Shown here in pieces: positions 2,519-21,559 of a DNA stretch of 64,000 bases. The stretch covers positions 1 through 64,000 of the forward strand of contig NIVC01003586.1 in the NCBI GenBank assembly GCA_002269645.1, in the 5' to 3' direction. The stretch is from Macrostomum lignano. Its lineage: Eukaryota. The notes beneath the pieces are model-generated. The model saw only the letters and a program-made list of their open reading frames with translations. It had not been told where the DNA came from and made no database searches. Each line of letters begins with the position of its first letter. The first letter of the stretch is position 1. The translations under genes and the position numbers were made by a program.

Positions 2519-5500
2519 TTACGGCGCCACGCCGGGGCTCTCCGTAGACTCCGACTGTTGTTGCTGCTGCTGTGGTTGCTCAGCTGCTTGAGTATCCGCA
2601 GCCAAAGCGGCTGGTGGCAGCGGCGGCGGCGGAGGTGGCAGGTCTATTGGCGGCACGTTAACTGACACAGGCGGCATGCCGGGCAAAGTGAGCTCTGTGC
2701 TCACTGGTGGAAGGTGTAAATCTGCCGGCTGCTGCTGCTGCTGCTGAGGTGGCGGAGGCGCCGGAGAAGCAGTAGAAGTCTCGGGCGGCACCAGCGGAGG
2801 CGGCGGCGGCGGCAGTGGAGAAGCCGCAGAAACTGGCGCCGGTGGCGGCGGAGGCGGCGGTGACGGCAGCGATTGAGAAGCCGCATAGGTGGGCGGCGGC
2901 ATCGATTGTGGAGGCGGCGGCATCGATTGTGGAGGCGGCGGCATCGATTGTGGAGGCGGCGGCGGCGGCGGAGGCAGCGGTGAAGACACGGGGGCGGGGG
3001 CAGCACTGGGCGTGGCGGCGGCTGAACTGAGCGGCACCTGAAATATTTTAAATCAAGTCTGGTGACCAAATCGGAATGGTAATTGGATGGTTTTAAAACT
3101 GCTGCAATTCAAAATTTTATCTCTTCCCCGTGGGGGGGGGGTGGCTAGTCCACATATACTAATACACTAATAAAAAATTAACAGAAACCTGTTGAAATGA
3201 TGGAGTATTCAGTTTGACAAAGCCTAAAAAGTACAAATAAAAGTATATTGTTGAAGACTCGAACTTCTACCTCAGTAAATCCGTCGCTAGCCGGAGCGCG
3301 CATTACGTCGCTAGGCAACGGAGTCAGCTGATCTACCGGCGGCTCCCTCGTGGGGATCCGATGCAAATAGCCGTAGCCGATGCCGCAGCCAAGTAGGCCT
3401 TCGCCGCCCCAGACAGAGTTGGGTGTAATCGTCACCTCGCGGCAGGAGTCCGACACAGTGCTGTACACGTACAGCTTCAGCGGCTTGCCATCGTGGGCTT
3501 CGATTAGTGTGATCAGATCCTCGTAGTCCTGCGGGAGGGTTGCCAGAGCTATTCCGACTCAGTATGCGGCAGTTTAAGTGACATTGTCACACAACCGGCG
3601 AGAGGCATTACTGCCCATTACGCCGACTCCTCTGAGCAGTCACACAAACGCGCGGATACGTACGCAGTCATACGCACAGGCACACTCACACAGGAGTGTA
3701 CAGCGCCCCTTACTTTATTTTATCGTTAGGCATGTACACTTCACTGTGCCTTGGAGTTGGCTCTCAGGGGCGTTAATTGCACGAGCGGAGCCAAGCCAAA
3801 ATTCCAATTTAGCCCAAAATCAATGTGACTGCACTTGGAATCGAGCCTGGGCCGCTGGCACAACAGAGCGCAGCGCTAGTCCACTGGGCTACGTGCCCCT
3901 AAGCCTGACTTTTTGTTTGCTAGAGGGATCTGACAGTGCCTCTGTCAGTACAGAATGATCTGACAGTATCTCTGTCAGTACAGAATGATTTGACTGTGTC
4001 TCTGTCAATACAGAATGATCTGACAGTGTCTCTGTCAGTACAGAATGATCTGACAGTGTCTCTGTCAGTACATAATGATCTGACAGTGTCTCTGTCAGTA
4101 CATAATGATCTGACAGTGTCTCTGTCAGTACATAATGATCTGACAGTGTCTCTGTCAGTACAGAATGATCTGACAGTGTCTCTGTCAGTACAGAATGATA
4201 TGACAGTGTCTCTGTCAGTACAGAATGATCTGACAGTGTCTCTGTCAGTACAGAATGATCTGACAGTGCCTCTGTCAGTACAGAATGATTTGACTGTGTC
4301 TCTGTCAGTACAGAATGATCTGACAGTGCCGCAGAAGGCAAAAAAGAACAGACCTGCAACAGAGTGTCGGCCCCAATGATGTAGTCGGTGTCAGACTGCA
4401 GTCCAGCCAGACCCGCAGGCGAATTCGGCTGCACGTCCATCACGTGCCAAACGTTCTCGTTGGCCCCGTCGAATGAGCAGAATCGAATACTGACACCCAA
4501 TAGGCCCTGGCCGCCCCAGCCTTCACACGGCACCAGGGTGACCTCGCGACAGCTCTGAGTCTTGCTGCTGTACACCAGAGTGCGCACAGGCTTGTCCTTG
4601 TGCTGGATTAGCAGGTCTCTCAGGTTCTCATTGTCCTCATTCTGAAATTTGGTTTAGACAGGCCATTTGATTTAATAAATTTTGAATAAACTATTTGATG
4701 CTTATTAAACAGGCAATTCACATAGAGCTTAACTTACTAATCGTGTATTTCCAATAGCAATGATGAAGTCAAAGAATGCCTCTAGGCCTGCCTTGTGACC
4801 TGGCGAGTTTTCTTGTACCTGATACAAATTGCAAATTTATTTAACAAAATTTGTATGGTTGGGGTGGTGTGGGCTAAATCTAAAATAAATTCAGTTTTAG
4901 CCTAAATTCAGTTCTTATGCAATAAATAATTATTAGGCCTAATCATTAATTTAGAGCTTCAATTAAAAACAAGATAATTATCATATCTAGGCCTAGATCT
5001 AGATAATTTAGATTATTAATAGATTAGAACATAGATTACTAGAATAACTAGATGGGCCACTTAGAACATTTTCGTGTAAGCTACTTTCAGTTCAGTAGTA
5101 AGTTAAACAGAAGAATTTTAATATATTTATACAGATAAGAATCATTTATTGGCTCTTACCCCAACTAAAACCCTCAAATGCACCTTTCCACACTGCTTCC
5201 ATACCCTGCCTTAAATTTTATTGCCTTTCTTGGAATGCTAGCCTAAAGTTGCCATGTACATTTCAGTGGACTGGCTAATGTACATTACTGCTAAACCAAT
5301 TAGCTTGCAAGCTACTTATGCCTGCAAGCTCAGGAGCTTCTAAACTTATCAATGTCATTTTAGCTGCCTTTATTTTTATAAAATAGCTTATATATTCTCC
5401 ATTGCTATTGAACTAAAAGTAGAAAGCTATTTAGTCATTTTAGTATCTGTGGATTAGAAGCAATGCTGAAGCAAATATATAAAAATTGAAGTAGAAATGC

Positions 5501-10295: not shown

Positions 10296-11261
10296 TGTTG
10301 TATCCCCCTTCCTCGCTGGCACGGCCGGGTTGGGCGACGGGTAGCGGTGTCGGGGTTCGGGTACTGGACTGCCCAGGGCTTACGAGCTCGATCGGCGACC
10401 CCGAGGCGTACGGACACTTCGGGGGGAGGTCAAGGTTGAGAAGTCGAGAGAGAGGGGAGGGGCGGCTGTGGGCGGGCGGCCACTCGACAGCCTGGTGAGT
10501 CAAGGAAGAGAGAGAGGGCTGCGGGCGGTCGGCCACTCGACAGCCTGGTGAGTCAAGGAAAAGAGAGAGGGCTGTGGGCGGGCGGCCACTCGACAGCCTG
10601 GTGAGTCAAGGAAGAGAGAGAGGGCTGCGGGCGGTCGGCCACTCGACAGCCTGGTGAGTCAGACTGAGGAGAGAATGAGAGAGAGAGAGATCAGGAGAGC
10701 GACCCCGAGGAACACAGGCAATTGTCTCGACAGCTTACCGGGCCGGGTCGATTATAGCACTCATACACGGGAAGGCCGATCGATTGCAATAAATTGAGTC
10801 TTCGCAGTAAGAGACCGTCTCTACGGTTGATCGCTGGTCACGTTCGTTTATTTATCGCGGTGGGCGCAAATGGGCGCAGGCACGGTGAGAAAAGGGGCGG
10901 GGTCTGAGCGTCGCCTTAAATAACGAGTAAAAAGGGGCAGGGGCGCAAACAAGGGGGGGAGAAAGGGCTTAAACAATGGAGCTGATTGACAGCTGATTGG
11001 CTGCGGCGAGGGGAGGGTGGAAGCGCGCACGGCCAGGGAGAGGGAGAGAGAGCAGAGGCCCAGCCAATCAGCACGGCTAGCCAAAGGGCTAAACAGCCAA
11101 GGCGAGAGAGAGAGAGAAAGAGAGCAGAGGCTCAGCCAAAGGGCTCATAGCTCCAGACTGGCTTGAGCCGGGGGGGGGGGGGTAACAATAATCAACTACC
11201 AAAGTCAACAACTATCAAAGTGCACTTGCACCAGGGGAGCACTGTGACACAGGTCACAACA
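10296..11261 (-). repeat. 3' LTR (966 bp)
   Basis: Matches 18125-19088; the only difference seen by eye is poly-G length (13 vs 11). Confidence 0.97.
10785..10828 (-). other. Spliced-leader (SL) exon-like sequence in 3' LTR
   Basis: AACCGTAGAGACGGTCTCTTACTGCGAAGACTCAATTTATTGCA; matches the M. lignano SL as recalled (CCGTAAAGACGG..TTTATTGCATG) and the flatworm AACCGT..ACGG..TTGCATG pattern. Confidence 0.8.
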
Positions 11262-11272
11262 CCCTCCCCCCT
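11262..11272 (-). promoter_or_regulatory. Polypurine tract
   Basis: Minus strand AGGGGGGAGGG directly abuts the 3' LTR. Confidence 0.9.
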
Positions 11273-11389
11273 AAAAAAAAGAAAACGACGCGCTTTGACT
11301 GAATGAAAATGAAAAAAAAATGTAATGAAATGAAACTGAATGAAAGAGACCAAGAGTGTCAGGCAGCGGCCGAGAGCGCAGGACAGGGG

Positions 11390-11770
11390 CCGAGGATGTC
11401 GGACAGGCCGAGAACACCGGGCACGGCCGAGAATGCCGGACTGTGGCCGAAAACGCCGGGCATGGCCGAGAATGCCGGACAGCGACCGAGAATGCCGGGC
11501 AGCGGCCGAGAACGCCTGGCATGGCCGAGAATGCCGGACAGCGGCCGAGAATGCCGGGCAGCGACCGAGAACGCCGGGCATGGCCGAGAACGCCGGGCAT
11601 GGCCGAGAGTGCCGGACAGCGGCCGAGAATGCCGGGCAGCGGCCGAGAATGCCGGGCAGCGACCGAGAACGCCGGGCATGGCCGAGAGTGCCGGACAGCG
11701 GCCGAGAATGCCGGGCAGCGGCCGAGAATGCCGGGCAACGACCGAGAGCGCCGGGCATGGCCGAGAGTGT
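11390..11770. repeat. GC-rich about 20-bp tandem array (ggccgagaatgccgggcagc variants) in the element 3' UTR
   Basis: Direct observation; source of several spurious ORFs. Confidence 0.9.
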
Positions 11771-11899
11771 TCCCCGCCCTTCCTTCGGGGCCGCTCCCAG
11801 TGCCAAACAGAGGGATCACAACGACGATCAGAGGAGAGATGGGATGAAATGAAGGAGTGAAGGTCTCTTGCCCGCCCTGGCATCCTGCCCCAGAACCCC

Positions 11900-12781
11900 C
11901 TAGACCGCCACCTCCGCCGCCCGGCGCAACAACCCCAACACGCGTCCTCCGTCGATTAGTTCAAACTGAGGGATCGCAACACTCATGACGAACCGAGTGC
12001 TTCGCTTGAAGGCAGGCCGCCGCCAGACACGCCGAGCATGACCCCGACACTTGGCGCTGATGTCACGGAGAATGAACTTGACAGTCTGAGCCAAAAGCTC
12101 GGCGATTTCGCGTCGATGATCCAGCCGCTCGCTGCCGCACAGTCCCACCATTTCAGTCAAAAGCCGGAACATCGCAGCTGGACTCCCCGACAACAAAGCG
12201 TGCCGAAGCTCCGACCGGATTCGAGCTCTTCGCTGCGTTGCCTCCCCGCTCCAGGTGTATTCCACCTCGGTACTCGGCTCGCTCCTCATCAGCCACGCTG
12301 GCGACTCCCGTTGGTCGATGACGAGCTCCGGTTCGTCTTCTGACATCGAAGTTTCGCCGTCGGATTCATTCAAGAGCTCTTCTTCCTCTGACTGCGTGAT
12401 TTCACAGCAGCTCTGAGCAGTCTCCTCGCCGCCGCAACCACCACGCTCGCTTCCTTCCGACTCCCTGTCCTCGTCTGACTCTTCTGTTTCGTCTTCAATC
12501 GTTACGACAAACTCCTCCGGGACGCACATCCCATCCGGCGGGACAAAATACCGGGCGCACTCGAGCGGGTTGCTAACGGCATCCTGCCCGAACCGGTCGT
12601 ACAGCGCTCGTCGAAACGGACACAGCAGGACCGCACTCGCATGCTGCAGCCTCTGGAAATTCTCCGTTCCACCGGGTCCACACTTGTCGGGGTGCCGTCG
12701 CAGGCTCTCACGGCGGTACGCACGTCGCAGCTCCTCCTCCGTCGCGAAGGGGCTGACACCAAACTCGGCGTAGAGGTCCAT
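11900..12781 (-). CDS. Retrotransposon ORF3: N-terminal DnaJ J-domain, acidic tract, unknown C-terminal domain (293 aa from the ATG)
   Basis: MDLYAEFGVSPFATEEELRRAYRRESLRRHPDKCGPGGTENFQRLQHASAVLLCPFRRALYDRFG has the J-domain helix pattern and HPD motif; same strand as pol, between integrase and PPT. Confidence 0.88.
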   Translation of the reverse strand: MDLYAEFGVSPFATEEELRRAYRRESLRRHPDKCGPGGTENFQRLQHASAVLLCPFRRALYDRFGQDAVSNPLECARYFVPPDGMCVPEEFVVTIEDETEESDEDRESEGSERGGCGGEETAQSCCEITQSEEEELLNESDGETSMSEDEPELVIDQRESPAWLMRSEPSTEVEYTWSGEATQRRARIRSELRHALLSGSPAAMFRLLTEMVGLCGSERLDHRREIAELLAQTVKFILRDISAKCRGHARRVWRRPAFKRSTRFVMSVAIPQFELIDGGRVLGLLRRAAEVAV

Positions 12782-12984
12782 GCCCGGAAAGCAGTGCCTG
12801 CAACAACCACGACTCACTTTTGAGAGCAGGGCAATGGTTCCTTCGAGCCTCTTTGGGGCGCCGATCCTTCATCCCTGATGGCAGGGTTGGGCAGGTGGGA
12901 CCTCCACTGACGGGCCTTAAGAGGGGAAATATATATTTTTGTTTGTGAAGCAGAGGCAATAACACGAGCCCAGTTTTCAATAAC

Positions 12985-13180
12985 GCGGGTGATGACGCAG
13001 ACGATGCTTCGAACCAAATGTTGATGACGCAGGTGATGACGCGGATGATGCTTCGAACCAAATGTTGATGACGCAGGTGATGACGCGGATGATGCTTCGA
13101 ACCAAATGTTGATGACGCAGGTGATGACGCGGATGATGCTTCGAACCAATTATTTATGACGCAGGAGATGACGCGACATT
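12985..13180. repeat. 44-bp tandem repeat (gatgacgcaggtgatgacgcggatgatgcttcgaaccaaatgtt), about 4 units, between pol and ORF3
   Basis: Direct observation. Confidence 0.9.
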
Positions 13181-13202
13181 GCGCACGCACTCACGTCCGC
13201 TC

Positions 13203-16200
13203 TTAATAATAAACGGGCGTTCCATAACGCTGCGGAACCCTTCGATCCCTCTGGGGTCGACCTTCGATGACTTCAACTGGCGCTTCCGGCTGCGGCTGCA
13301 CTCCTGGCTGCTGCACATCCATTGGTTCTCCCTCCTCTCGAACCCGCCCGGAATGTCGCCACCATCGCTCCTCATCCTCATCGTCCGATTCCGTCTCTTG
13401 AGCAGGACCTGGGTGGTACCTCCTTGGTGCAGGACGCCGAGGGCCACCGGTGCCGTCGACCGGGTACTTCCGGTACCGAGGCAGGAGGTTGTTAAAGTGC
13501 ACCACCTTGATCGGCTTCCGTCGACCTTCCTGTCGAATCCTATAGCGCGTCTCCGACAGCTTCTCGAGAACTACGGCAGGTCCGGTCCAGGGTGAGTGGA
13601 GCTTCGCTTTGGCACCGGCCTTCAACACGGGGTTGTAGACGAACACCTCGTCGCCAGCCACGAATTCTCGACCCTTCACCTTCCGGTCGTACCAGTCTTT
13701 CTGCACTCGTTGATATGACGTTATTCTCTCACGCACCACCCGATGGGCTTCCACGAGCGTCTCCCGCAGGTTCTGGACTTCCTCGCAGTACGGTTCGATG
13801 TCCAGTGGGCGCGCCACTCCCAAGTCAACTGGCAGAGACATCTCGCGACCATGCAGAAGGAAGAAGGGTGAGTAGCCGGTGCCGCGGTGCACACTGGAGC
13901 GATACGCCATGAGCGCCGGGGCAACGAATTCGTCCCACCGCCTCTGATCCGGCTCCTTCACCAGGTGCGCCCGGATCACTGCAGTCAGCGTCTTATTGAA
14001 GCTTTCCACTTGGCCGTTTCCAGAGGGGTGATAGGCGGTCGTACGCGTCTTTCGGATATTCAGACTTTCGCACAGCTGGCCGATCAATTGCGACTCGAAA
14101 TTGGCTCCCTGATCCGAGTGGATTGTCCCTGGGGCTCCGTAGTGACAGACCCACTCCTCGAGCATTGCCCTTGCACAGGTGCTGGCCGTCTGATCTGGCA
14201 CCGGTACTGCCACTGGCCACTTACTGAACGCGTCCTGCATCGTCAGTATGTATTTGTTGCCTCGGACGCTGGTTGGCAGTGGTCCAATCAAATCCACCAT
14301 CACTCTTTCAAACACATGGCTGCTGGGAATCGGCTCCAATGGGGCCTTCCGCCGCATCCCGGGCTTGCTCCGGTTACAGTCGTCACACCTTCGCACAAAC
14401 TCCTCGACCTCTCGCTTCAAGCCGGGTCTCCAGAATCGGTTCCTGACTTTCTCCAGAGTCTTTGCTACGCCGAAGTGTCCACCTCCTGGTCCAGAGTGCA
14501 GCGTCTGCAGAGCGTCGGGGATCAATTTCTTCGGGAGAACAGCCCGCGGTGGGTGACGTCCCAGATCCTTGATGACGAGGGTGTTGTCCACAATTTCCAG
14601 CCGAGGCTTTTGTGCCCAGATGGCTCGGGTCGTTGGTGACGCACCCCGAGGTGGCTCTTCGTTTGCTCGGCCGGCGTGCATCGACTGGTAAACTGGAGCG
14701 ATGTCGTTGTCCACAGCTTGTGCTGCTGCCAGCTCATCTCGGCTGAGCAACCCGAGCAGCGTCGTTACCCTGACCCCGGGGAGGTCATCAGTCCGGCACG
14801 ACGGGCAGTTATCCATTTCGGGATGTCGTCGCGGCGGCTTGCGTGACAGCGCGTCCGCATTCTGATGACGCGCCCCTGGCCGATGCTCCACTGCGAAGTC
14901 GAATGGCGCCAACCTCTCCATCCACCGAGCCAACTGGCCTTCCGGCTGCCTCATACTTCGGAGCCACTGCAGACTTGCGTGGTCGGTGCGCACCCGGAAC
15001 CTCCGGCCAAGTAGATAGTACCGGAACCTCTCTGCGAATGTCACCAGCGCCAGGAGCTCGATTCGTGTCGTGCAATAGTTGAATTCGGCCCCTTGCAGAC
15101 GCCGACTCCCGTACGCAATAACCCGCTCTGACCCGTCTTCTTGTACCTGCGACAAGACTGCTCCGAGACCCTGTCGGGTACTTCCATCGGTATCCAAGAT
15201 GAACTCACCAGCCGTGGGGTCGAAGTTCGGGTAGGCCATCACGCGGCAACCGGTCAATTCTTCTTTCAGCTTTTTGAAGGCCTCATCGTGTTCCTCTCTC
15301 CAACTGAACGGCTTGTCTTTCTTTGTCAGATCAAAAAGTGGTGCAGCGACTATCGAGAATTCTGGTATGAAGTTTCGGTAGTAACCAGCCAGACCCAGGA
15401 ACGACTGAAGGTCTTTTGCATTTCTTGGAATGCTCCAGTCACGGACTTCCTTGATCTTCTCCGGGTCGACATCGATTCCGTCCTTTGACACGACGTGGCC
15501 AAGGAATTTGACCTCATCGGCCAGGAATCTGCACTTAGATGGCTTTAGCCTCAAGTTGGCTGCGCGCAGGCGCTGGAATACCGCCTCGAGATTCGTTAGA
15601 TGCTCGCTGACAGTTCGGGACCAAATGATGATATCGTCGATGTAGACGAGCGCCATTTTCCACAGAAGGTCGTGTAGTACCATATTCATCAACCTTGTGA
15701 ATGTCGCCGGCGCATTGGTCAATCCGAAGGGCAGCACCTTGAACGCGAATTGCCCCCGATGCGGAATGACAAAAGCAGTCTTTTCTTGATCCTCCCTTTT
15801 GACCTTAACTTGCCAATAGCCGGAGCAAAGGTCGAGCGTCGAAAATACAGCCGCACCTCCGAGCGCTTCAAGTGCGTCATCGACACGCGGGATTGCTATG
15901 GCGTCCTTGACAGTTCGTTGATTCAACTCTCTGTAGTCGACACACAGTCGCAGTTCCCCATTCTTTTACGGACACAGACCACTGGCGAACTCCACGGCGA
16001 TTGGGTCGGTTCAATCATCTTCGTTGCCAAAAGCTCGTCGATTTGTCGGTCGACTTCGCCGCGCCAATGTGGCGGTAGCCGTCGCGGAGGCTGTTTTACG
16101 GCTGTTCCGGTGGTCTCAATTTCATGCTGCACGATGTCCGTCGTCCCGAGGCGCGCTGTACTCTCTGCGAAAACATCTGCGTATCGATTCACCAATCTTA

Positions 16201-17155
16201 GGAAACTCGCTTTGTCTGCCCCCGTGAGCTGCTTGGAGCCGTGCTGGTTCAGTGCCGCCTCTGGGTCCCATGGATCGCAGCTGGGTCGTAAAACCGACGC
16301 TTGCTCTTCGATGCTGGCTACCAGAACCTCTTGAGCCGGATCTGATGGTCGAAACCAGCCGATGACAGCTCCCTTCCGCAGCCGCAGCTCGGAGTCCGTG
16401 ACATTCGCGAAGTGAACTGGTAGGGTGTTGCCCTGCTGGATGAGGCAGACGCTCCTGGCTAGCATTGGTCTCTCATCGCTCTTCAGTTTTTCGTCTGGTT
16501 CGGCGACGCCGAGCACTCCGGAATTCTGTGTCGCTGTTCTCCGAATCCTGGCTGAGACGGTCCGTTCGTGATTGGCCGGAATGATCAAGTTTTCGTTCAG
16601 GTACAACCGGCAGACGACTGGTTTGTGCTTGGTCTCTCGGATTGGCACACGTGAACCGTTCACGCGGAAAACTCCTCCGGCGAAATCGATTTGGCACCGG
16701 TGGCGGCGTAAGAAGTCGGTGCCTAGCAACAGTTCGTAGCCGACCCCTTGGACCACCGCAATTGGCGTCTGTAAAGTTTCTGATCCGAACTGTAGGGGAA
16801 GCGACGCGCATCCTAACACATTCATGGGAGTTCCGTTCGCTGAGATCAGGTGGGTTTCCGAAGGGCTGAGTTCAACTCGAACCGACTTGCTCAACTGCCG
16901 CCAGGTCCTCTCGTTCACCAGCGACATGACCGAGCCCGAATCCAACAGACACGGCAACTCAATCTCGCCAATTTTTACCGACACGTAGATTGACACGGGA
17001 TTAAAAGCTGTTGCAGGTTGATCTCTATCTCTTGAGCAGTCCGCCGGACATCCTGCTGCACGTCGCTCCGGGGCTGCATCTTCGTCTCGGGTTGGGGCCT
17101 CTACTGTCTCGGCGGAACTCCCTCGCCCCTGCGGAAGTTCCCCTTGCCGTTTCCC
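13203..17155 (-). CDS. pol: protease, dUTPase-like spacer, RT, RNase H, integrase (GPY/F); one 1-bp frameshift at about 15965
   Basis: LLDSGS (PR), YIDD (RT), TDGS..YGSRRL (RH), H-H-C-C then D..D..E (IN), SPWTGP. ORFs 15923-16996 and 13203-15926 join if one A is added to the A4 run. Confidence 0.95.
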
Positions 17156-18081
17156 TGTTGCTGACGGGTTGGGCAGTTAGTCGCGATGTGCCCTGGCTTG
17201 TTGCAGAAGAAGCAGCGAATTCCTCCCGTTCGTCGAGGCTTCTGATGGTCGCCTTCGTCGGAGTCGGTCGGTCGAGCTGCGGCGCTGCTATGCGGTTCCG
17301 CTCTCAGCGACTCGAGCTGAACCACTTTGCCTTGAAGCTGCCTCACCAGTTTCTTCAACTCCTCGAGCTCTTTGTCCTTTTCTTGGGAGTAGGCTCCATC
17401 CTCCCGAGGCACAGATTCCGCCGCGCCGCTCACCACGAAGACTCCTCGGTGGCCGCTGCCAGTTGCTCCAGCCGATCTCGGTCCCTTCGCCGCCTTGGAC
17501 GCCGCCTCGAGCTGCCTCACCGCGCGTTGTGCTGCCACCAGACCTTCGGGCTGCTGCAGGTAGAGCTTCTCTCGCTGGAGGTCGGAGAGTCTCACCCCTT
17601 GCATGAAGCGATCCTTTGCGAGGTCGTCCTGCAGCTCGGCAGTTGCCGCCGGGTAGGCACAGCGCACCAGTTCAAGGAGAGCATCTGCGTAGGCCTCCAA
17701 CGACTCGCCATCCTTCTGATCTCGGGTTTTTAGCTCGACCTTGCTGTCCTGCTCTGTCCGGTACCGGGAGAAGCGAGCCTCCAACCGGGCGGTGAATCCC
17801 TCGTAGTCCAGCGGATCCACAGGATCGTCGGGTCCCGGCAGGTTCAGATTATCGACCGCAGCGTACGCCGTAGCGAGATCCAGCATGCTCATCAAGTGCT
17901 CGCGGCGATGCTCCTCGTCAATCTCGGCGGAGTCGCAATAAGCGTTGAAAGAGCGCAGCCAGAGTCGAAAATTCATGCTTGACGTGTACTTCACGGGCTT
18001 CGGGAGTCTCGGTGGCTGGGCTGGTCCATCCGCTCGCAGACGCTCGGCTAGCAGCCGAATCAGTTCGTCCACATTCGCCAT
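17101..18081 (-). CDS. gag with CCHC zinc knuckle (326 aa)
   Basis: CFFCNKPGHIATNC; typical gypsy capsid region; ATG 25 nt after the PBS. Confidence 0.95.
   Translation of the reverse strand: MANVDELIRLLAERLRADGPAQPPRLPKPVKYTSSMNFRLWLRSFNAYCDSAEIDEEHRREHLMSMLDLATAYAAVDNLNLPGPDDPVDPLDYEGFTARLEARFSRYRTEQDSKVELKTRDQKDGESLEAYADALLELVRCAYPAATAELQDDLAKDRFMQGVRLSDLQREKLYLQQPEGLVAAQRAVRQLEAASKAAKGPRSAGATGSGHRGVFVVSGAAESVPREDGAYSQEKDKELEELKKLVRQLQGKVVQLESLRAEPHSSAAARPTDSDEGDHQKPRRTGGIRCFFCNKPGHIATNCPTRQQQGNGKGNFRRGEGVPPRQ
17114..17155 (-). promoter_or_regulatory. Candidate -1 ribosomal frameshift signal (gag-pol)
   Basis: G GGA AAC slippery heptamer (17149-17155), 7-nt spacer, 9-bp stem with 10-nt loop; -1 frame is open into protease. 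Confidence 0.75.
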
Positions 18082-18105
18082 GACAGCTCACAAGCAAACT
18101 GAGCA

Positions 18106-18123
18106 GTCCCTGTTCGGGCGCCA
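18106..18123 (-). promoter_or_regulatory. Primer binding site, tRNA-Lys
   Basis: TGGCGCCCGAACAGGGAC, 1 nt inside the 5' LTR; this is the known tRNA-Lys(UUU) PBS sequence. Confidence 0.92.
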
Positions 18124-18124
18124 A

Positions 18125-19088
18125 TGTTGTATCCCCCTTCCTCGCTGGCACGGCCGGGTTGGGCGACGGGTAGCGGTGTCGGGGTTCGGGTACTGGACTG
18201 CCCAGGGCTTACGAGCTCGATCGGCGACCCCGAGGCGTACGGACACTTCGGGGGGAGGTCAAGGTTGAGAAGTCGAGAGAGAGGGGAGGGGCGGCTGTGG
18301 GCGGGCGGCCACTCGACAGCCTGGTGAGTCAAGGAAGAGAGAGAGGGCTGCGGGCGGTCGGCCACTCGACAGCCTGGTGAGTCAAGGAAAAGAGAGAGGG
18401 CTGTGGGCGGGCGGCCACTCGACAGCCTGGTGAGTCAAGGAAGAGAGAGAGGGCTGCGGGCGGTCGGCCACTCGACAGCCTGGTGAGTCAGACTGAGGAG
18501 AGAATGAGAGAGAGAGAGATCAGGAGAGCGACCCCGAGGAACACAGGCAATTGTCTCGACAGCTTACCGGGCCGGGTCGATTATAGCACTCATACACGGG
18601 AAGGCCGATCGATTGCAATAAATTGAGTCTTCGCAGTAAGAGACCGTCTCTACGGTTGATCGCTGGTCACGTTCGTTTATTTATCGCGGTGGGCGCAAAT
18701 GGGCGCAGGCACGGTGAGAAAAGGGGCGGGGTCTGAGCGTCGCCTTAAATAACGAGTAAAAAGGGGCAGGGGCGCAAACAAGGGGGGGAGAAAGGGCTTA
18801 AACAATGGAGCTGATTGACAGCTGATTGGCTGCGGCGAGGGGAGGGTGGAAGCGCGCACGGCCAGGGAGAGGGAGAGAGAGCAGAGGCCCAGCCAATCAG
18901 CACGGCTAGCCAAAGGGCTAAACAGCCAAGGCGAGAGAGAGAGAGAAAGAGAGCAGAGGCTCAGCCAAAGGGCTCATAGCTCCAGACTGGCTTGAGCCGG
19001 GGGGGGGGGTAACAATAATCAACTACCAAAGTCAACAACTATCAAAGTGCACTTGCACCAGGGGAGCACTGTGACACAGGTCACAACA
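18125..19088 (-). repeat. 5' LTR (964 bp) with CCAAT, GC boxes, TATTTAAG, AATAAA, SL-like exon, splice donor and 4x about 50-bp repeats
   Basis: Direct repeat of 10296-11261. Confidence 0.97.
18614..18657 (-). other. Spliced-leader (SL) exon-like sequence in 5' LTR
   Basis: Identical to 10785-10828. Confidence 0.8.
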
Positions 19089-21559
19089 ATAAAACTTGGC
19101 TCACGACTCCGGTAGGTCTTCAAAGTGACGCTGCTCACGTCTGATTTCTTCAGATTAGTCCCGTTTGATGTGGCGGAATCCGCTGCAGGCCGAATGACAT
19201 CCAGCATCCGTTCTTGACTGCCGAATTGATGGCGCCTGCTTGCATGAGCTTTCTGCGGCGACCCACGCACCGGCGGCATCGATGACTGCAGCAGCGAGTC
19301 GTTGCTTCGTCGATGAGGTGCGGCGGACGTCGGCAGAGGACGCGACTCCAGCTCGCAGAGCAGGCAGTCTTTATAGAGCGCCGACTTAAGAAAACGAGCA
19401 TAGCTGTCCATGCGCATCAGGTTGAAGATCTGGCTCTGCGCTGCGTTGAACATGCCGACATCGAGCTGGCCGCTGCTCAGGCGACGCTGCACCTCGCGCT
19501 CGGTGGCGCCGTCCAGATTGATACTCGCTGGAGCCTCGCAGCCAATGTGGAGTCGCTCGATACGATGGGCCGCGGCGAGAATCTGCTGAGAGAGGGTGCA
19601 GACGTTATTGACTTTACTAGATAAATGAGCTCCCAGGTGGGAAAATTGATGAAAAAATTGTGGTGACCATTCGGAAAAGCTGCGTCATTGCATAACGCGA
19701 GTCTGGGGAAGGATATCCTCTTGTACTCAGACAGTCAAGCAGCGATCCTCGCCCTTGAGCGCACCACCACCACCGACTACATCGGGTAGCTTAACTGCAT
19801 GCTTAGGTGCCTTCAACAAGGTGTCTCTAATATGGATTTCCGCGGGCACTCGGGCCATCCCAGCACCCCAGCTGCTGCCCAATCACAGCAGGGTGAGCTG
19901 GAGTGCAGAGCTGCTGCCCAATCACAGCAGGGTGAGCTGGAGCTCAAGAGCTGCTGCCCAATCACAGCAGAGTGAGCTAGAGCCCAGAGCTGCTGGCCAA
20001 TCACAGCAGGGTTAGCTGGAGCCCAGAGCTGCTGCCCAATCACAGCAGGGTGAGATGGAGCCCAGAGCTGCTGCCCAATCACAGCAGGGTGAGCTGGAGC
20101 TCCGAGCTCAAACGTGCCACTGGCTCACAGTTGGCTGGCTTGGGAGATGACGCTCATACAGCCTACTCAGCTGAGCACTAACTGCGATCAACTCTGCTTA
20201 ACCGCGAAAGCTTCAAAGTAACAAGCTCTCAGCTGAGCTGCCAGCCTCACCTCGCCAGGTTCATCCGTCGGCAGTTGCTTGAACTCTTCGACAGCCAGCC
20301 AGAACTGGATGTTCTCTTCGCTGAATTCGGTTCGGAGAAAGTCGGCGAACACCCAGACACCGTCGGTGTCAGCCAGCAGGTGGTCCAGCCCGGTGGCCCA
20401 CTTGGCTACCCGATTCGCTCCGCGTCGCAGCTCCTCCAAGCCTGCAATGAATAATTGTGATGGAACTATACTGGCACTCCTGACACTATGCTGGCACTCC
20501 TGACACTATGCTGGCACTCCTGACACTATGCTGGCACTCCTGACACTATGCTGGCACTCCTGACACTATGCTGGCACTCCTGACACTATGCTGGCACTCC
20601 TGACACTATGCTGGCACTCCTGACACTATGCTGGCACTCCTGACACTATGCTGGCACTCCTGACACTATACTGGCACTCCTGACACTATGCTGGCACTCC
20701 TGACACTATGCTGGCACTCCTGACACTATGCTGGCACTCCTGACACTATGCTGGCACTCCTGACACTATGCTGGCACTCCTGACACTATGCTGGCACTCC
20801 TGACACTATGCTGGCACTCCTGACACTATACTGGCACTCTTGACACTATGCTGACACTCTTGACACTATGCTGACACTCTTGACACTATACTGTCTGGCA
20901 CTCCTGACACTATACTGGCACTCCTGACACTATACTCACGCTCCTGAATCTATACTCTCCTTTCTCTTCAAACAGACTGCATGAAACGCACATGTAATAG
21001 CTCATACATTTGTTTCATAACATTCCGGAAGAAAAATCTGACATCCCAGTCAGACTTTGGAGGTAGAGTGCATATAATTGCGCCCATCTGTTCATAGGGA
21101 TCTAGGGACAATGGTACGCAAGCAGAGCTACCATATTTTCGTACCCGCTGCTGCAGCGGCGCAGTCCCGGCTCAGCTGGCCGCCGACCATCCAGTCGTCG
21201 TCGAAGTCAAGCGTCTCCTTCATCTGGGCCAGATTCTGACAGCTGACAGCCAGTTTGGAACGGCCCTGACTGCCGTGCTGGTGCAGCTGATGTTGCGGGA
21301 ATCTGCAAGGTGGCGCGAACTCATCGATGTCGGGCTTGACTTGCTCGCCACCGGAACTGGTGCTAGCGAGGCTGTGCTGGGATCCGAAGAAGCTCAGGTG
21401 GCCGATGTTGCTCAGGAGGTGACTCAGCCTGTGCCAGCGGTGCTGATGTTAGTGCTGCGTTGATTGCTGCTTCTGCGACTGCTGCTGGGCGTTGGCAAAT
21501 TTCTGCTTCCCAGCGCCAGTCTGCTTTGCCGACTTTCCCTTGCCAGGCTTGTAGAGCAT
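19019..21559 (-). CDS. Regulator of G-protein signalling (RGS12/14/loco-like RGS box), disrupted by the LTR element
   Basis: Exons 21145-21559 (in-frame TAA at 21449-21451), 20251-20441 (W..GLDHLLAD..F.DFLRTEFSEENIQFWLAVEEFK), 19089-19582 (INLD..MFNAAQSQIFNLMRMDSYARFLKSALYKDCLLCELESRPLP); reads into the LTR to a stop at 19019. Confidence 0.88.
19700..19862 (+). pseudogene. Degenerate RNase H fragment of a non-LTR retrotransposon in RGS intron
   Basis: GKDILLYSDSQAAILAL..NKVSLIWISAG resembles [18 protein letters not shown] of the LINE at 36150-39968. Confidence 0.65.
19858..20100. repeat. About 40-bp minisatellite (agagctgctgcccaatcacagcagggtgagctggagccc), 6 units
   Basis: Direct observation. 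Confidence 0.9.
20462..20945. repeat. 20-bp minisatellite (ctggcactcctgacactatg), about 23 units
   Basis: Direct observation; starts about 20 nt from the RGS exon 2 acceptor. Confidence 0.95.

Follow-up and report, generated by a model that had tools for sequence, protein, structure and literature searches.

Extra ORFs beyond gag and pol are known from Ty3/gypsy LTR retrotransposons: an orchid element reportedly carries an AlkB ORF, and Cer1 is said to encode CERV, an additional ORF that is not an env. J-domains bearing an HPD motif engage Hsp70, with the remainder of a class C protein picking the client, and pestivirus Jiv is a captured J-domain. In the excerpted text of PMC5408684 the bdelloid Juno and Vesta elements of the Ty3/gypsy type (Metaviridae) are described as carrying DEDDy and GDSL ORF3s, and in that of PMC11720896 polyomavirus T antigen engages Hsc70 through an HPD J-domain. 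Here we describe a J-domain gene, ORF3, carried by Ty3/gypsy elements of Macrostomum lignano, starting from a copy in contig NIVC01003586.1 (positions 1 to 64,000; this whole stretch of 64,000 nucleotides is called the window below). These elements have in common with Juno/Vesta, the orchid AlkB element and Cer1 the gag-pol-ORF3 layout, a captured cellular domain and an expected spliced sub-genomic RNA, but differ from other gypsy ORF3s in their J-domain co-chaperone cargo joined to an unrecognised helical domain, in an apparent single origin across eight lineages and in the modular addition of chromodomain and TatD-like parts. Like T antigen, ORF3 is a parasite-encoded protein with an N-terminal HPD J-domain followed by a disordered region and then a folded domain; unlike it, ORF3 belongs to a retrotransposon, has no helicase, lacks LxCxE in nine of 10 proteins, and its Hsp70 binding is a prediction only. 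The gypsy-borne chromodomain of one of our families (F) recalls chromoviruses, which carry theirs at the integrase C-terminus and not in ORF3. The literature searched yielded no gypsy ORF that encodes a chaperone cofactor; nor, among the top matches listed, was there an LTR retrotransposon bearing a J-domain or a TatD domain, or an LTR containing a spliced leader.

The nearest described group in the same animal is Gmr1/Osvaldo. In the parts of PMC12801592 that classify M. lignano LTR elements, one member is Mlig-id38, and the LTR of a J-less element from our sister group (L127, see below) starts like it; the 4-bp target duplication is also common to both. Family A, the family of the window copy, is placed near Gmr1/Osvaldo by neighbourhood and not through a tree with reference elements. 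No ORF3 or J-domain is described in the consulted parts of that paper: 'DnaJ' is absent from its main text and occurs in its supplements only in a differential-expression table, where the first 2 of 13 places are a host gene. Term searches of the available text of PMC13524379, PMC5408684, PMC6338049 and PMC8775202 likewise returned no 'DnaJ'. Databases already contain some ORF3 proteins, as gene models carrying no name beyond 'J domain-containing protein'. The window element comprises the following features:

10296..19088, minus strand: full-length Ty3/gypsy LTR retrotransposon (family A) with TG...CA ends and a 4-bp target-site duplication
18125..19088, minus strand: 5' LTR, 964 bp, with zero substitutions and one 2-nt length difference against the 3' LTR
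18106..18123, minus strand: primer-binding site, an identical 18-mer in families C and A'
17101..18081, minus strand: gag, 326 aa, with weak Retrotrans_gag/PNMA matches and a CCHC zinc knuckle
13203..17170, minus strand: pol with approximate start, encoding protease, RT, RNase H and integrase; disrupted by one frameshift near 15960
11900..12781, minus strand: ORF3, J-domain protein of 293 aa, open from ATG to stop
11262..11272, minus strand: polypurine tract
10296..11261, minus strand: 3' LTR, 966 bp

The order gag, protease, RT, RNase H, integrase is that of Ty3/gypsy elements and the closest solved relatives of the family A RT are Ty3 RTs (E 8e-44); the primer-binding site is of a type that we take to be tRNA-Lys. 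The element is young, and its LTRs are without substitutions. A 4-bp target duplication was also seen at 11 of the 12 other loci for which both ends were captured. ORF3 starts 421 nt past the pol stop and within the LTR pair. The preliminary description had put it in the env position, which holds for its location between integrase and 3' LTR and fails as a statement about the protein: since the highest 19-residue hydropathy in family A ORF3 is only 1.09 (0.94-1.56 over 10 ORF3 proteins), the product is without a membrane segment and is not an envelope protein, and Pfam gave no env family match for family A or its relatives. There were no Rfam matches within the element and no tRNA genes in the window. 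Tandem repeats of 19-20 nt in the 3' untranslated region (window 11360-11790) and others of 44 nt in the stretch separating pol from ORF3 (window 12980-13170) are candidate binding sites for an element protein; the sister family A' bears a 3' tandem array of its own. Host exons surround the element, namely an RGS-like one next to the 5' LTR (window 19240-19600, minus strand) and, farther away, a GRASP55/65-like one (window 4340-4640, minus strand), both recognised by eye.

The ORF3 protein is built of three parts:

12596..12778, minus strand: J-domain, residues 2-62; contains HPD and closes with a lineage-specific CPF/YRRxLYD motif
12263..12508, minus strand: linker, about residues 92-173, acidic and disordered; VVTIED at residue 92 is a weak SUMO-binding-like motif
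11906..12247, minus strand: C-terminal domain of five helices, residues 179-292, conserved; its basic loop ends in Trp

Pfam DnaJ (PF00226) matches residues 2-62 over model positions 1-63 of 63 with 48.2 bits (E 1.2e-12, cut-off 27.8 bits), the HPD lying at residues 30-32 between helices II and III. An AlphaFold2 model built on a 10-sequence alignment has a pLDDT of about 90 at residues 1-90, under 50 in the acidic, Ser-rich stretch at 100-173, and again about 90 in five helices at 179-292. In many matches about 65 residues of its J part superpose on solved J-domains with an rmsd of 0.9-1.8 A (another comparison aligned 69 residues at an rmsd of 1.2 A and Z 9.1), and a complete J-domain with the four-helix fold is present by both Pfam and predicted structure. 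The first reading of the DNA, which had proposed an intact 293-aa ORF after integrase with a complete HPD J-domain, an acidic Ser-rich tract and a novel, helical-looking C-terminus, and had named the HMM search and structure prediction as checks, is therefore upheld in all three parts of the protein. The class A/B DnaJ features (G/F region, zinc finger, DnaJ C-terminal domain) had no Pfam match in family A and eight relatives; ORF3 is best described as a putative class C type J-domain protein, for which stimulation of the Hsp70 ATPase is predicted only. The C-terminal domain modelled alone reaches a pTM of 0.80 and found no match at E<=0.001 among PDB or viral structures. Its best structural match, to B12-binding cap bundles (Z 7.9, rmsd 2.6 A, 81 aligned), is within the range of common helical arrangements; an Atlas search gave nothing, and the best 60 of 81 PDB sequence matches included none outside the J-domain. 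The models thus describe a confidently folded domain without a recognised family, whose predicted fold offers no clue to its target. The basic loop with its Trp was recovered by pattern in 6 of 10 proteins and is also seen in the alignment.

A search of the genome DNA with family A gave 24 matches, 19 of them full length (96-100%), three partial and two at 73%, counts that are perhaps inflated if the assembly is redundant. The 293-aa frame is open in 14 of the 19 full-length copies, including that in the window, and HPD is present in 17; a pol frame of at least 1300 aa is open in 4 of 17 other family A loci. Breaks per kilobase, some of them possibly assembly errors, are similar in ORF3 and pol, and the variant codons of ORF3 are six synonymous and eight non-synonymous. 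With so few variant codons and such similar break rates family A is by itself too young to show selection. A protein search of the genome with ORF3 produced 154 matches, drawn from 134 of 233 candidates scored, and the loci mapped were 40 diverged ones, the two 73% loci and 20 family A copies, with 20 more in a second round, which added family H. At least seven further lineages in the genome have a homologous ORF3 in the same slot between integrase and 3' LTR, with lengths of 327 aa in B/B2, 315 in C, 283 in E, 328 in F and 558 in H; in D, G and A' the gene is decayed. Identity to family A ORF3 is 31-37% for B, C, E and F. The J-domain, the CPF/YRRxLYD ending and the C-terminal domain align across all ORF3 families; HPD is conserved in families A to G at about 30-37% overall identity, and HPD together with K33 is retained in seven families other than H. 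The remaining J-domain matches in the genome are ordinary host genes.

Across unbroken natural stretches of ORF3 the dN/dS is 0.09-0.28 in 15 of 16 comparisons, the sixteenth being saturated; values from pairs with dS above 1 are rough. In the cleanest pair, B against B2, ORF3 has a dN/dS of 0.25 (327 codons, P 3e-6), next to 0.25 and 0.30 for pol, and the C-terminal domain is lowest within this pair at 0.15; the J-region gives 0.09-0.13 in deep pairs. As estimated from these codon comparisons, selection on ORF3 is as strong as on pol where the two are comparable. Had the frame been confined to one copy or its dN/dS been near 1, the initial proposal of an accessory gene would have fallen; with most copies open and dN/dS well below 1 it survives, and ORF3 is a real, selected, element-borne J-domain gene.

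In a tree of RT-RNase H sequences (26 rows, families drawn from the best 150 of 3946 RT candidates, with two long outgroup rows as root) a single clade, supported at 97/97, takes in 18 rows. ORF3 or its remains are seen in 14 of these, and the other four (L119, L120, L122, L123) are cut or deleted at that place. The sister group of six rows (99/97), which includes L127 in this tree without reference elements, has zero matches to the J or C-terminal profiles. A comparison with host DNAJ genes had also been proposed at the outset: in a J-domain tree of 72 columns, with rough support, 16 element-type rows stand apart from 26 host rows (96/95), and no close donor is found among these 26 host loci, which are part of the host J-domain set. 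One Ty3/gypsy clade has ORF3 as a conserved accessory gene with a three-part build and, as far as these alignments and trees can tell, acquired it once, before the eight lineages split. Beyond this genome, a search of 1.84 billion representatives gave matches extending past the J-domain in P0003, P0005 (Logan), P0007 and P0058 (JGI/IMG) and in two Macrostomum gene models; P0157 (Logan) combines a J-domain, a chromodomain and a partial C-terminal domain and is 76% identical to F. Two database proteins that differ hardly at all from those of families E and C carry the label Macrostomum lignano in their sources. A metagenome scan with P0007 found none, and the 80 metagenome loci kept of 240 were set aside as ordinary J-domains without the C-terminal domain or retrotransposon genes.

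Several individual copies deserve mention. A young-looking A' copy (LTRs 99.5% alike) has most of its ORF3 deleted, and an element can therefore sometimes do without ORF3 in cis. Copies with near-identical LTRs and a mostly deleted ORF3 are L135:1740-3640, L123 and L125, possibly helped in trans. In L046, a family E copy, an internal deletion joins RNase H in frame to the J-domain in a 1099-aa frame, and copies of this kind account for fused database gene models such as P0155. A 763-aa frame with RT and GIY-YIG-like parts, Penelope-like by eye, is inserted into a family E relative (L119:1009-3297, minus strand). A 1449-aa single-frame J-domain protein without other Pfam match occurs in at least five places (L137:726-5072, minus strand, and L138 among them); with no retrotransposon genes alongside, it was left out as an element gene.

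Some lineages have added to the basic build or lost parts of it. Family F ORF3 carries a chromodomain between the J and C-terminal domains (Pfam E 1.4e-12), with two of the three aromatic residues that we take to form the usual cage; this gypsy chromodomain, situated in the linker and outside integrase, is seen at L048:2023-3006 (minus strand) and also in P0156 and P0157. Families D and H bear a C-terminal TatD-like domain in ORF3 (E 1e-8 to 5e-5), which is degenerate and lacks most of what are presumably the metal ligands of TatD:

L140:1417-3090, plus strand: D/H ORF3 with TatD-like domain
L035:1316-2671, minus strand: D/H ORF3 with TatD-like domain
L166:952-2034, minus strand: D/H ORF3 with TatD-like domain

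In the abundant family H the 558-aa ORF3 is open in 11 of 21 fetched copies and HPD is absent, and Hsp70 recruitment is thus not required in every branch. A tight motif, hydrophobic residues followed by ISD[DS][DE], a pattern picked after inspection, occurs in 6 of 13 proteins (each <=0.003 by shuffling), from the three deep lineages B, C and D and from P0005. We take it to resemble the SUMO-binding motif of Daxx/PML, and presumably it could alternatively be an Atg8-binding motif. A looser pattern is matched by 5 of 10 proteins at shuffle rates of 0.09-0.27, and family A has only this looser variant; neither the tight motif nor a chromodomain or TatD-like domain is present in the window ORF3 itself. 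A complex prediction of host SUMO (L190) with ORF3 residues 80-170, folded without alignments, scored 0.01 and is counted neither for nor against an interaction.

The expression of ORF3 and an unusual insertion in the LTR involve three further features:

12798..12803, minus strand: predicted 3' splice acceptor TTGCAG, 16 nt ahead of the ORF3 start
18614..18655, minus strand: copy of the host spliced-leader exon in the 5' LTR, 3' of AATAAA, 41/42 identical to host SL RNA genes
10785-10826, minus strand: second spliced-leader copy, in the 3' LTR

All 10 families examined have an AG acceptor-like site 0-16 nt ahead of where the J-domain begins, and in seven of them it fits [T/C]TNCAG, reported at trans-splice acceptors of M. 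lignano in the portion of PMC8629364 consulted. Contigs from four presumed-RNA runs give coverage of 28-30 of the 30 bins across the element; those with ORF3 read straight through the acceptor, and none contained a splice joint there, contigs being prone to drop rare forms. ORF3 would be expressed from a spliced or trans-spliced sub-genomic RNA. Joints to 18614 were discarded as element splicing: they have 20-22 letters on one side and loose ends in unrelated sequence and are read as spliced-leader transcripts of other genes. Both LTR copies of the leader lack the final two letters of the exon and lie just past AATAAA, at the likely R/U5 border. The 28-nt core of the leader occurs 90 times in the genome (control 0), and 30 fetched loci comprise 18 family A LTRs, five SL RNA genes and seven other places; it was found neither in 30 loci of other families nor in a full-length A' copy. 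The leader may have been captured through reverse transcription of a trans-spliced element RNA, a route that its place just after AATAAA fits. Depth over the family A LTR from spliced-leader reads is 14,000-53,000, and since the LTR copy absorbs such reads it could distort expression counts of family A. The host SL RNA genes (leader, then GTAAG; L114-L118) stand in tandem arrays with a spacing of about 11-19 kb. Canonical heat-shock elements, as in ONSEN-like heat-activated elements, were absent from the ORF3-clade LTRs under a pattern search (0 of 7 LTR regions and 0 of 3 further LTRs); the same search found one in the LTR of the J-less L127, and this absence in the tested J-bearing LTRs is a further difference from Gmr1/Osvaldo as presented in the available text of PMC12801592.

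As to function, our leading proposal, at a probability of roughly 40%, is that ORF3 is an Hsp70-recruiting nuclear adaptor acting on chromatin complexes. The J-domain would stimulate host Hsp70, the choice of target would fall to the acidic linker together with the helical C-terminal domain, and Hsp70 brought by ORF3 to a protein complex on chromatin would pull it apart to the benefit of the element. The most likely client is a chromatin complex, given added modules that read chromatin or bind nucleic acid and a linker motif resembling those that bind SUMO; the add-on domains suggest chromatin or DNA more than particle assembly or PIWI loading. The likeliest target would be a silencing complex marked by SUMO that sits on copies of the element itself, with the element's integration complex next. 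The HPD-less family H and the A' copy with most of ORF3 deleted weigh against such an adaptor, as do the missing tight motif and added domains in the window ORF3, the high shuffle rates of the looser pattern, the incomplete chromodomain cage and the degenerate TatD-like domain. A more specific version, in which ORF3 binds chromatin of its own copies that bears SUMO or methyl marks and removes the silencing complex by way of Hsp70 as a counter-silencing tool, one family also hiding a host spliced leader in its LTR, is a speculative extension that we consider doubtful. It would resemble VANC of the Arabidopsis VANDAL transposons, an accessory gene for which family-restricted counter-silencing is proposed in the sections of PMC6719617 consulted; VANC, however, belongs to a DNA transposon, acts in the context of plant DNA methylation and has no J-domain, and the corresponding role of ORF3 is conjectural.

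Another explanation, for which we see a minority chance, is a private cytoplasmic co-chaperone which would bring Hsp70 to Gag/Pol and fold the RT or assemble or open the particle. Hepadnavirus RT and many capsids depend on Hsp70/Hsp40, and an HPD J-domain selected as strongly as pol and co-inherited with the RT is what one would expect of it. Yet six related RT lineages have no J or C-terminal match, and the cytoplasmic step evidently works without ORF3 there; three J-less lineages have identical LTRs (320-360 bp, little room after pol), the chromodomain and TatD-like additions fit poorly, and HPD is gone in family H. It is unlikely that ORF3 is instead an RNA-handling regulator like Rev or CERV, whose basic loop would bind element RNA, with Hsp70 reshaping the RNP to serve export or the control of splicing: the conserved loop with Trp, the acceptor-like site in 10 of 10 families and the precedent of Cer1 CERV speak for it, but no RNA-binding fold is recognised and the chromodomain add-on suggests chromatin. 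The Hsp70/Hsp90 machinery also loads Argonautes, and ORF3 might divert it to sabotage small-RNA defence at the step of PIWI/Argonaute loading. This we hold to be improbable, as no sequence feature indicates Argonaute and a general block would release all elements and hurt the host, an argument made in the excerpted text of PMC6719617. That the J-fold is now a mere scaffold for a functional C-terminal domain, Hsp70 being uninvolved, would accommodate the open, multi-copy, HPD-less ORF3 of family H and the low dN/dS of the C-terminal domain between B and B2, but is very improbable given HPD and K33 in seven other families and the strongly constrained J-region of deep pairs. Finally, a recently captured, functionless host DNAJ fragment or env equivalent, which the six synonymous and eight non-synonymous variant codons and the five broken copies among 19 in family A might have suggested, is largely refuted by one origin without a close host donor, dN/dS far below 1 and the lack of a membrane segment.

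In the consulted part of a 2019 review (PMC6719617) no transposon-encoded factor was known against the piRNA or KRAB pathways. ORF3 is a concrete candidate for an anti-silencing factor in a host species with RNAi and transgenesis, and the question of anti-piRNA or anti-KRAB factors therefore becomes testable. If the particle-chaperone explanation were true instead, these elements would be the first retrotransposons to supply their own Hsp70 cofactor. With either outcome, a J-domain appears to have been captured once, kept under selection of about the strength seen on pol in eight lineages, and fitted with chromodomain and TatD-like modules.
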